Below are positions 57,995-59,419 of a stretch of DNA of 64,000 bases, one piece after another. The notes beneath the pieces were generated by a model. It was given only the letters and a program-made list of their open reading frames with translations. It did not search any database and was not told where the DNA came from. Within the stretch, counting starts at the first letter, position 1; every line of letters begins with the position of its first letter. This DNA comes from Thalia democratica (taxonomy: Eukaryota): assembly GCA_965202585.1 (NCBI GenBank), contig OZ241826.1:74090001-74154000 (forward strand), read 5' to 3'. Both the position numbers and the translations under genes were made by a program.

Positions 57995-58519
57995 TAAACA
58001 TTTTTAGAATTTTAACTTAGGTTTTTTAGATAAATATTAGTTTTAAGGTGTTAAACGTTTGTTAAACTGAAAAAAAACTTTAAATATAGTCCAGGTGAAA
58101 ACCATTATACACTAAAGCACTCAACTTAGAGATATATAAGCATGCAACATAAGTTTATAACTTTCTTTTTGTAATTTACATGTAATAGTCAGAAATAATA
58201 TTTTAAGAGATACTTATGATCATCAACTTTATGTACTAAAAGGTACTTGCATATAACAACATTTTTGAGCTAATTCAAAATCTGGATTTAAACACTCTAC
58301 TAGCTATTTTTAAAGTAAAATTAAAACTATAAGTATTTAAATGTAGTAAATGCTTAAGACACTTTTAAAGTGTGGTAAAAATGCTTTTTTTTAACAAAAT
58401 AAAAAAGAAATTCTAAAGAAATTGTAAAGAAAAGACTTTTTTTGAATATAAATTTACAAATTCCTAATTACAATCATGAGTCAAAAGTTTGTTTAAAAGT
58501 CAATGTTTACCGTTCATGA

Positions 58520-58813
58520 TGATGGTTCCTTACTCTTACACTGGAGGTTGAGGCTCGGCCTCTTCTTACTCGCCTTCTCCTCCTCTTCTCTGGTTGCTCC
58601 AGCTGCGGCCGCTCTTCTTGTAGTGGTTCTCCCGGAACTCTGGTGGGAAGTTTGGCTCCACTGACGTCCTTCTCCGCGAATTAATCGCTGGCGGCATGGC
58701 GTTGTTCACCATCGTCATCAATGCCAACGGATTCGAGGGTCTGCTTGACATCATCAGCAGACGGGTTGGCATTGCGCCCCATGGCATCCGAAGGTGTGCT
58801 GCCATGTATGCAT
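58520..58813 (-). pseudogene. RPLP2: 60S acidic ribosomal stalk protein P2 pseudogene
   Basis: With frameshift correction it reads M(R)YMAAHL.-AMGRNANPSADDVKQTLESVGIDDDGEQ..*FAEKDV..GAKLPTRVPG..AAAAGATREEEEKASK. This matches the P2 N-terminus (MRYVAAYLLA.LGGN.NPSA.DIK.IL.SVGI) and the Ala/Glu hinge. The C-terminal DMGFGLFD is not recognisable. Confidence 0.8.
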
Positions 58814-59419
58814 TTCCAGAAGAATCGACATCGTCACTACAATTCTGCTGTACGTAGTGGCAGCTTGTTCTTATTAGAATGGTTCATTCTGAGGTCTCTG
58901 GGGTGTGGCAGTTCGACTTACCCCACCAAACTAGATGAGTGAAAGTTACTGAGCCATGATTTTTACAATTTGCTTGGCAAGCTTTCCCAGTGCTAAACAG
59001 GAGACAACCAAAACTCAATGCAAAATAGAAAATTTTAGATTTTTATATAAAATATCACACAGTACCTATTTTAGCTAAGATAATTACAAAAAAAATACAT
59101 GTCTATAAGATACCAATTTTTAATGGTTGTACAAAAAAATATAAAATCAAAAACCCCATTAATTTTGAAATTAAAAAAAATCTTAAAGTTAAGTCATTTA
59201 ACAATAATATAAAAAATGCAAGCAGCTTCTAGGTGTTGTACAAAATAATCAGTGAAAATCAACTGTTGCTTATTTGAATAAGCCCTTAAGTAGTATTCAT
59301 CTAAAAAGTACCAAATATCTTTCTATGCTTGTACAAAAAAAAAGGAAGAAATCTTGGGGTTTACCAATCAGAACCAACGGTTCCCCATTGTAGCAGTTGT
59401 CAACCAGTTTTGTAATTTC

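Follow-up and report, generated by a model that had tools for sequence, protein, structure and literature searches.

How does the message of a ribosomal stalk gene come to lie inside a retrotransposon, and does it do anything there? The question is raised by a locus of Thalia democratica at which an initial annotation had noticed a decayed copy of RPLP2, which encodes the P2 protein, behind the pol gene of a Gypsy element. We analysed a 64,000-nt stretch of the genome containing this locus (G000:C1:74090001-74154000), which we call the window. Positions are those of the window unless a contig is named, and the element, like every feature described below, lies on its minus strand.

Structure of the element

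The element is a young Ty3/Gypsy LTR retrotransposon, as established by its order of protease, reverse transcriptase, RNase H and integrase, its two LTRs, its target duplication, its primer binding site (PBS) and its polypurine tract (PPT). It is full-length, at 8541 nt, and is flanked by a 4-base target duplication. The 3' LTR (57190..57980) is 791 nt long and ends TG...TA; the 5' LTR, identical to it at 791 of 791 positions, lies just outside the window at G000:C1:74154940-74155730 and is immediately followed by the PBS, which we take to be that of tRNA-Trp. Since the 5' LTR is identical and the duplication is in place, the PPT (57981..57995) and the 3' LTR are assigned to the same element as the RPLP2 copy, and the suspicion that they might belong to a different one can be dismissed. 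LTRs usually end TG...CA, a feature that is typical without being strictly defining. Termini of the form TG...TA are found in 28 of 30 copies of the present element; among the sister families described below, the LTRs of C and E end in CA and those of D in TA.

The 3' part of gag (63403..64000) belongs to a 591-codon open frame that runs past the edge of the window. The pol gene (59420..63466) encodes protease, reverse transcriptase, RNase H and integrase, in the Gypsy order, and its frame is open for 1348 codons from stop to stop; the earlier statement that pol has no disabling mutation is confirmed, its figure of 1328 codons being a slightly different count. pol reads in the -1 frame relative to gag, and a slippery heptamer, AAAAAAC (63427..63433), lies within the overlap of the two genes, where gag-pol frameshifting probably occurs. 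The RNA fold of this frameshift region is not significant (z -1.7). Across copies, the pol frame ranges in length from 1348 to 1415 codons. In the window, three 129-nt repeats with a 43-nt sub-period (62755-63173) precede the protease, in the N-terminal region of pol. Outside the element, families of short inverted repeats and of dispersed repeats are numerous in positions 1-57000; the arms at 38199-38416 and 39523-39740 (94%) are one example.

Two spacers frame the region of interest. The first, leading from pol to the env region (58939..59419), falls about 230 nt short of its counterpart in older copies. The second, an AT-rich 3' spacer (57996..58499), is homologous to the region that follows env in sister family C; the interval 58588-57981 is 70% identical to L208, the element to which the locus L177 belongs.

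A spliced RPLP2 message behind pol

Between the pol stop and the PPT lies a GC-rich island, with 54-57% GC at 58500-58800 as against about 20-25% in its AT-rich flanks. As the initial annotation recognised, the island contains a frameshifted RPLP2 sequence in the sense orientation of the element. The extent first given for it, 58500-58960, holds in part: about 58845-58552 is RPLP2, and the rest is a remnant of env.

The captured piece (58552..58845) corresponds to spliced RPLP2 mRNA, beginning with the end of the 5' UTR in exon 1, passing through a start codon at 58813, and covering codons 1 to approximately 92-97. It is 76% identical over 58845-58552 to the spliced mRNA of this genome's RPLP2, and the spliced coding exons of the host gene align to 58815-58545 with agreement at 200 of 263 columns. 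The exon joints fall near 58816/58815, 58659/58658 and 58597/58596. Joints 2/3 and 3/4 are crossed without intron sequence, as reflected in an alignment score of 213 for the spliced arrangement versus 162 for the unspliced one. Host exon 2 alone matches the island with E 1e-26, while exon 3, exon 4, and both together each outscored 1000 of 1000 shuffles. Upstream of the start codon, exon 1 provides a better fit than the end of intron 1 in all five copies tested, by a narrow margin in the window copy (23 versus 20). The captured piece lacks the 3' UTR and stops within the coding sequence, at an env-like stretch. No poly(A) run or duplication flanking the island is visible by eye, in keeping with what was first reported.

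A PF00428 profile search of the genome yields eight places. None of them is an island, and no intact captured P2 was found in this genome; one is the host RPLP2 gene itself (C5:34434792-34438180), with four exons, GT-AG introns and 108 residues. As a candidate donor the host gene scores 158, versus 41 for a paralogue at C5:3.13 Mb, and we therefore take host RPLP2, not the paralogue, to be the donor. The paralogue, a likely one, is the diverged second RPLP2-like exon L036 (G000:C5:3129455-3129580). With the host exon as query, 40 of 146 candidates were scored; the islands are outranked by the host gene and by just one other locus, L045 (G000:C7:43196263-43196419 with flanks). L045 is a stand-alone processed RPLP2 pseudogene that includes 5' UTR. 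It is about 10% diverged from the host gene, evenly over codon positions, and the part of it that was compared shows no match to the element.

Remnants of env on both sides of the island

Sister families were recovered by a search with integrase and placed in a midpoint-rooted pol tree of 19 rows. The tree reads ((E,D),(C,(B,A))), each of these forks being supported at 100/100; A (the window's) and B are the two subfamilies of the island-bearing family. The pol of sister C is about 77-79% identical to that of the window's lineage. Behind pol, family D has a third frame of 608 codons, and family C has an env of 591 residues that occurs in intact, broken and internally deleted versions.

In the sister env protein the N-terminus is hydrophobic, a hydrophobic helix lies towards the C-terminus, and the tail is basic. 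Its Pfam matches fall below the cut-off: the rhabdovirus fusion domain PF00974 in 7 of 13 sequences and herpesvirus gB (PF00606) in 3 of 13. A sequence comparison with the PDB gave no match. In a Foldseek search with a structure model of the protein (pLDDT 59.5), HSV gB is the best hit (E 9e-18, TM about 0.25), and glycoproteins of negative-strand viruses are found as well; on this evidence, from a low-confidence model, we read the third ORF of C and D as an env of the gB type (class III). Searching the genome with the N-terminal part of env returns 131 matches, many with open frames of 570-630 codons; Gypsy elements that carry a gB-type env thus form a large clade in this genome. A database search found only six relatives.

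The window's element, in which intact env is absent behind pol, retains short ends of it. One is a remnant of the cytoplasmic tail (58500..58591), which agrees with the env tail and following spacer of C' (L177) at 114 of 136 positions (0 of 1000 shuffles); used as a query, the env tail finds copies of the family at E 1e-23. The other is an N-terminal motif (58840..58872), which reads KNKLPLRTAEL here and KYKLPLCTRKV in env. Its best profile score is beaten by 0 of 600 shuffles (0-6 of 600 over five copies), and an anchored DNA comparison gives 16 matches in 30 positions, a value reached by 11 of 3000 shuffles. Farther upstream, a block at 58908..58938 recurs in family C immediately before env (24/31 identity, 0 of 1000 shuffles), and is likely the splice acceptor of the env message. 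A whole-env HMM run over 30 frames left the remnants undetected; the anchored tests alone detected them. The island thus sits inside env, with remnants on both sides, and its placement at the env position by the initial annotation was correct. We found no env-intact copy of A or B.

Two other observations concern the env region of related elements. L174 and L175 (G000:C5:55.50 Mb and C6:48.06 Mb) are young elements with gag, protease and intact env that lack reverse transcriptase and integrase; their LTRs are 99.9-100% identical. Family E carries a different GC-rich island behind pol (L113:2400-2720, e.g. G000:C5:29399411-29399731), with 22 candidates and no match to env or to RPLP2.

Junctions and the origin of the capture

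The two ends of the captured piece are informative about how it arrived. At the 5' end, host exon 1 and env codon 36 have in common an exact 11-mer, AAGTTGCAAAG, found in all six family-C copies that retain this part of env. It is located where the island changes from env-like to host-like, and the window has a diverged form of it at 58835..58845. By chance, 33 of 3000 shuffles of exon 1 reach a match of 11 anywhere in env. At the 3' end, the switch would fall within a purine-rich zone (58552..58591) that is alike in RPLP2 exon 4 and the env tail: the two agree at 31 of 35 positions for C (0 of 1000 shuffles) and at 32 of 40 for L177 (2 of 1000). Between these junction words, C has 1583 nt of env and the island has about 260-290 nt of RPLP2. 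The words are read from sister C, and the closest tail, that of L177, is without its 5' junction; neither A nor B yielded a copy with intact env, and the words are therefore the sister's and not those of A or B themselves. Taken together, the intact env of the sisters and the similarities at the junctions point to the replacement of about 1.6 kb of env, for which two template switches are the likely mechanism.

We envisage the following course of events. The ancestor evidently possessed an env of the gB type, as sisters C and D still do. Abundant RPLP2 mRNA would have been packaged together with the element's RNA. To judge by the junction similarities, reverse transcriptase probably jumped from the env tail of the element's RNA to the purine-rich codons for the acidic tail of RPLP2, continued toward the RPLP2 5' UTR, and rejoined the element's RNA at the 11-mer. 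Such a double switch would remove env codons 36-564 of 591 and leave out the last 11-16 codons of P2. The gag-pol region, the PBS, the PPT and the LTRs were spared, and copies with open pol persist. The hybrid would have lost infectivity and then multiplied within cells, while frameshifts, deletions and a stop evidently gathered in the captured piece before subfamilies A and B split. We regard env replacement through template switching as very probably the origin of the island.

A different route to the same arrangement would be a LINE-type processed RPLP2 pseudogene that entered an already deleted env, or recombined with it at the DNA level, and was then carried along. The existence of L045 demonstrates that a stand-alone processed copy can be found in this genome, and there are family-C env deletions that begin at the same 5' site without any capture. 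The island, however, has no poly(A), 3' UTR or target duplication, both of its ends are env-similar, and L045 shares with it only 2-4 of 42-59 differences. We therefore consider this route very improbable.

The family-C deletions deserve mention in their own right. L116, L119 and other copies of family C (e.g. G000:C2:105987493) have an independent internal env deletion that starts within the same 11-nt word, and 7 of the 14 family-C tail matches appear to be of this type. There are hints here that the word may be a hotspot for template switching.

Copies and subfamilies

The island is a property of a family, and not of one insertion. A search of the genome with the island gave 151 first-look candidates, of which 40 were scored, and a search with the spacer behind the island gave 149. 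A protein search produced 150 matches at about 138 places by hand count, some small contigs possibly being duplicates. Two samples that were not selected for the island agree: it is present in 30 of 30 PPT-anchored copies and in 17 of 17 integrase-anchored copies of A and B, which refutes the idea of a one-off retrocopy. In total we found about 140 copies of the chimera, versus 14 of sister C and 3 of D. For the comparisons below, 88 loci were reduced to 70 distinct places; one is without an anchor, leaving 69 anchored copies.

Subfamilies A and B are about 9-14% apart in the P2 part. Both show the early losses of single bases, the deletion of 15 nt, the stop, and the frameshift in the hinge, taken up below; the earlier view that the piece was carried by the lineage and decayed before the present insertion is thereby upheld. 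At least seven island-bearing copies have a pol frame of at least 1348 codons without a stop. Internal-deletion derivatives account for 57 of 70 sampled copies and fall into 11 junction classes, nine of which end between 59341 and 59768. One derivative, deleted from 62074 to 59341 in window coordinates and hence without reverse transcriptase to integrase, dominates, at 25 of the 30 PPT-anchored copies.

Decay of the island and its possible coding capacity

In the window, the P2 piece is frameshifted, has an in-frame stop at 58683-58681, and has lost 15 nt near 58664. The stop is found at the same position in 67 of the 69 anchored copies, the other two having earlier private frameshifts; a stop is present in 122 of 124 matches to the N-terminal part across the genome (hand count). 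In L270 and L282 the stop is read through by way of private indels. In most copies the frame is regained through three single-base losses, all within the first 40 nt; P2 is out of phase for its first 13 or so codons, and five codons are deleted later. The window copy has one extra base near 58776, as do two other copies. A 105-codon frame at 58566-58883 was considered as a gene and rejected, since only the few extra-base copies have it and it has no Pfam match. The island indels that are fixed in the lineage are mostly multiples of three (6, 9, 12 and 15 nt). There is no PF00428 match for the frames of the window or for two copies read with X.

A functional P2 stalk protein requires intact N-terminal dimerisation helices, which the island lacks. 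At its other end, P2 has a conserved C-terminal motif that binds translation factors, according to the accessible text of PMC5887453. This motif is absent in 69 of 69 anchored copies, and since the 3' switch lies upstream of it, the captured piece most likely never had it.

To assess selection, we compared A with B. The end of pol has an omega of 0.17, while the six island frames range over 0.57-1.74 (six pairs), with none standing out. The P2-phase frame, at 0.57-0.74, resembles most other frames, these values resting on only 23-33 changes per pair with transitions uncorrected. There is no clear sign of purifying selection on any island frame, in a comparison of little power. The initial annotation had proposed that the capture tuned translation by recruiting elongation factors. 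This proposal finds no support: the C-terminus was most likely never captured, roughly the first 13 codons are out of frame, and no frame is under clear purifying selection.

One further coding possibility was suspected from a run of changes in the hinge. At 58640-58570 there is a cluster of G-to-A changes relative to the host in hinge codons, 5-9 per copy, versus 0-1 at that codon position in exon 2; the changes also occur, as Ala-to-Thr, in the open relatives described next. A selected, arginine-rich shifted frame was rejected as the explanation, because 24 of the 31 G's in the stretch occupy the codon position concerned, and because mismatches as a whole are spread evenly over the three positions.

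Relatives in other assemblies

A protein search with a B copy read with X returned five proteins among 19 candidates. Three of the five, with their cluster members, make up nine sequences that read 97-131 residues in the P2 phase and are free of both the stop and the frameshift in the hinge; the remaining two (P0127 and P0131) have long frames in different phases. One protein, P0128, carries a precomputed PF00428 match. The open relatives are 62-66% identical to the host over 74 codons, have a scrambled helix 1 and lack five codons, and the C-terminal motif is absent in nine of nine. The initial annotation had called for a look at relatives with an intact P2 ORF: open frames exist in other assemblies, no intact captured P2 was found in this genome, and the C-terminal motif is missing from every copy and relative examined. 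The search could return open frames only, and the captured coding sequence was open at birth; in a neutral simulation at the relatives' divergence, in which indels are not modelled, 30-42% of sequences stay stop-free. DNA of the relatives was sought in two metagenome scans with nothing useful found, the sole locus (L269) being a chance match without similarity to the element, and a viral scan found none.

These open frames bear on a second account of the island, which accepts the same capture and holds that the env message served to express the hybrid frame, which selection then kept for a time as a third ORF until it died in the subfamilies of this genome. A C-terminally truncated P2 could then act as a stalk decoy. 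The nine open proteins, one with its PF00428 match, the early restoration of the frame, the mostly in-frame fixed indels and the retention of the likely env acceptor are what this account would lead us to expect. Set against them are the search's restriction to open frames, the sizeable neutral fraction that stays open, the other phases of P0127 and P0131, and, even in the open relatives, the scrambled helix 1 and missing C-terminal motif. Triplet-periodic DNA, moreover, favours in-frame slips, which we count against the account. We find it improbable.

Divergence and possible roles of the island RNA

A and B differ in the P2 part at 19 of 200 positions, less than pol four-fold sites (37 of 195, p 0.009) and less than the 3' flank (38 of 213, p 0.015), and no less than the 5' flank (36 of 306, p 0.47). 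Slow divergence of the P2 part, open frames of 112-131 residues in relatives from other assemblies, mostly in-frame fixed indels and an omega below 1 in the P2 phase all count against plain neutrality. Since the 5' flank is equally slow, the slow divergence is not specific to P2, and it may reflect recombination.

The same pattern invites a third account, namely that the island is kept for a role at the RNA level, either as a packaging or export element or as the origin of small RNAs that would also strike host RPLP2, with the result that silencing the element carries a cost. An island diverging at roughly half the rate of pol four-fold sites fits such a role, and so do the 149 versus 151 first-look candidates, which suggest few island-free copies, and the deletion classes, all 11 of which end upstream of the P2 coding part. 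Those classes, however, come from an island-anchored sample, the PPT-anchored sample being essentially one class (25 of 30), and the 5' flank is as slow as the island. The best 21-mer matches host mRNA at 20 of 21 positions in three A copies tested and at 21 of 21 in B; against this, uninterrupted identity with host mRNA extends over at most 17 nt in 65 of 69 copies (27-37 nt in the other four), and the piece stands in sense orientation. The island's RNA fold is unremarkable as well (z -1.5, not significant). A precedent exists in FBR murine sarcoma virus, where, in the accessible text of PMC6375957, a captured ribosomal-protein cDNA acts at the RNA level. On balance an RNA role of this kind is hardly probable. 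In RNA runs, 11-14% of sampled words occur in four runs and 45-53% in five others, figures that are not evidence for expression, habitat or host range.

Returning to capture by template switching, we put at about 0.72 the joint probability that it replaced env and that the island is a decaying passenger, today and throughout. Some role for the island, as protein or as RNA, is unlikely but possible. A fuller version, in which the capture made an infectious element intracellular and also gave it either a new third ORF (a stalk-binding truncated P2 from the env message, still open in relatives) or an RNA tying silencing to the level of host RPLP2, strikes us as rather unlikely; if true, it would mean a retrotransposon acting on the host ribosome.

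Comparison with known systems

The closest parallel is with the LTR-mediated retrocopies of animals (Tan et al. 2016, PMC5131818), which, in the main text of that paper, arise by a double template switch and are described as non-autonomous chimeras at one or a few sites. As there, a partial, intronless host mRNA has taken the place of a portion of the element's ORFs, the two fusion points show microsimilarity, the piece has neither poly(A) nor a target duplication of its own, and further amplification followed, to about 138 places in our case. Unlike those chimeras as the main text presents them, the present one has lost env only, has open gag-pol, and forms a family of about 140 copies in two subfamilies. 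By the definition in that text the island is an LTR-mediated retrocopy, non-autonomy excepted; the word 'env' is absent from the main text.

Other systems resemble this one in single respects, as far as the accessible parts of the papers describe them. Ty3/Gypsy errantiviruses with an ENV of the HSV/gB type (Chary and Hayashi, PMC13524379) are matched by sisters C and D, which are gag-pol-env elements whose protein of about 590 residues gives a low-confidence model matching gB, whereas the window's family keeps short env ends only. FBR murine sarcoma virus, with its fau (eS30) cDNA, is likewise a reverse-transcribing element with an untranslated host ribosomal-protein cDNA; its fau is antisense, with a reported effect on host mRNA, while the RPLP2 piece is sense, decayed and part of an invertebrate-type Gypsy element (PMC6375957). 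LTR elements of bdelloid rotifers also hold foreign sequence in the third-ORF position, but their ORF3s, which are not env, are intact enzymes with conserved catalytic residues (PMC5408684), and the island is a broken sequence whose source can be traced to one host mRNA. Insect endogenous retroviruses have passed from env-bearing to env-less by secondary loss (Senti et al., PMC12992720); here the loss of env coincides with the capture of a host mRNA, and both junctions are still readable. In a literature search with incomplete coverage of subscription journals and supplements, we found no report of RPLP2 capture or of a host mRNA replacing a Gypsy env, and, with the same coverage, no link between the P-stalk and retrotransposon frameshifting.

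Implications

The locus provides a well-resolved natural case in which one event appears to account both for the capture of a host mRNA and for the loss of env. One can read in it the donor gene, the sisters that bear env, both junctions, the two subfamilies that descend from it, and relatives that have decayed less. It also indicates that capturing a host mRNA need not cripple an element, given about 140 copies of the chimera versus 14 of C and 3 of D. That env-less elements spread more within genomes is an existing idea; the present family fits it, and a single event proves nothing general. For annotation, the family is a warning, in that about 140 apparent RPLP2 pseudogenes in this genome are one transposon family. 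Finally, it offers a testable system for asking whether a captured housekeeping sequence couples the silencing of a transposon to a gene of its host.
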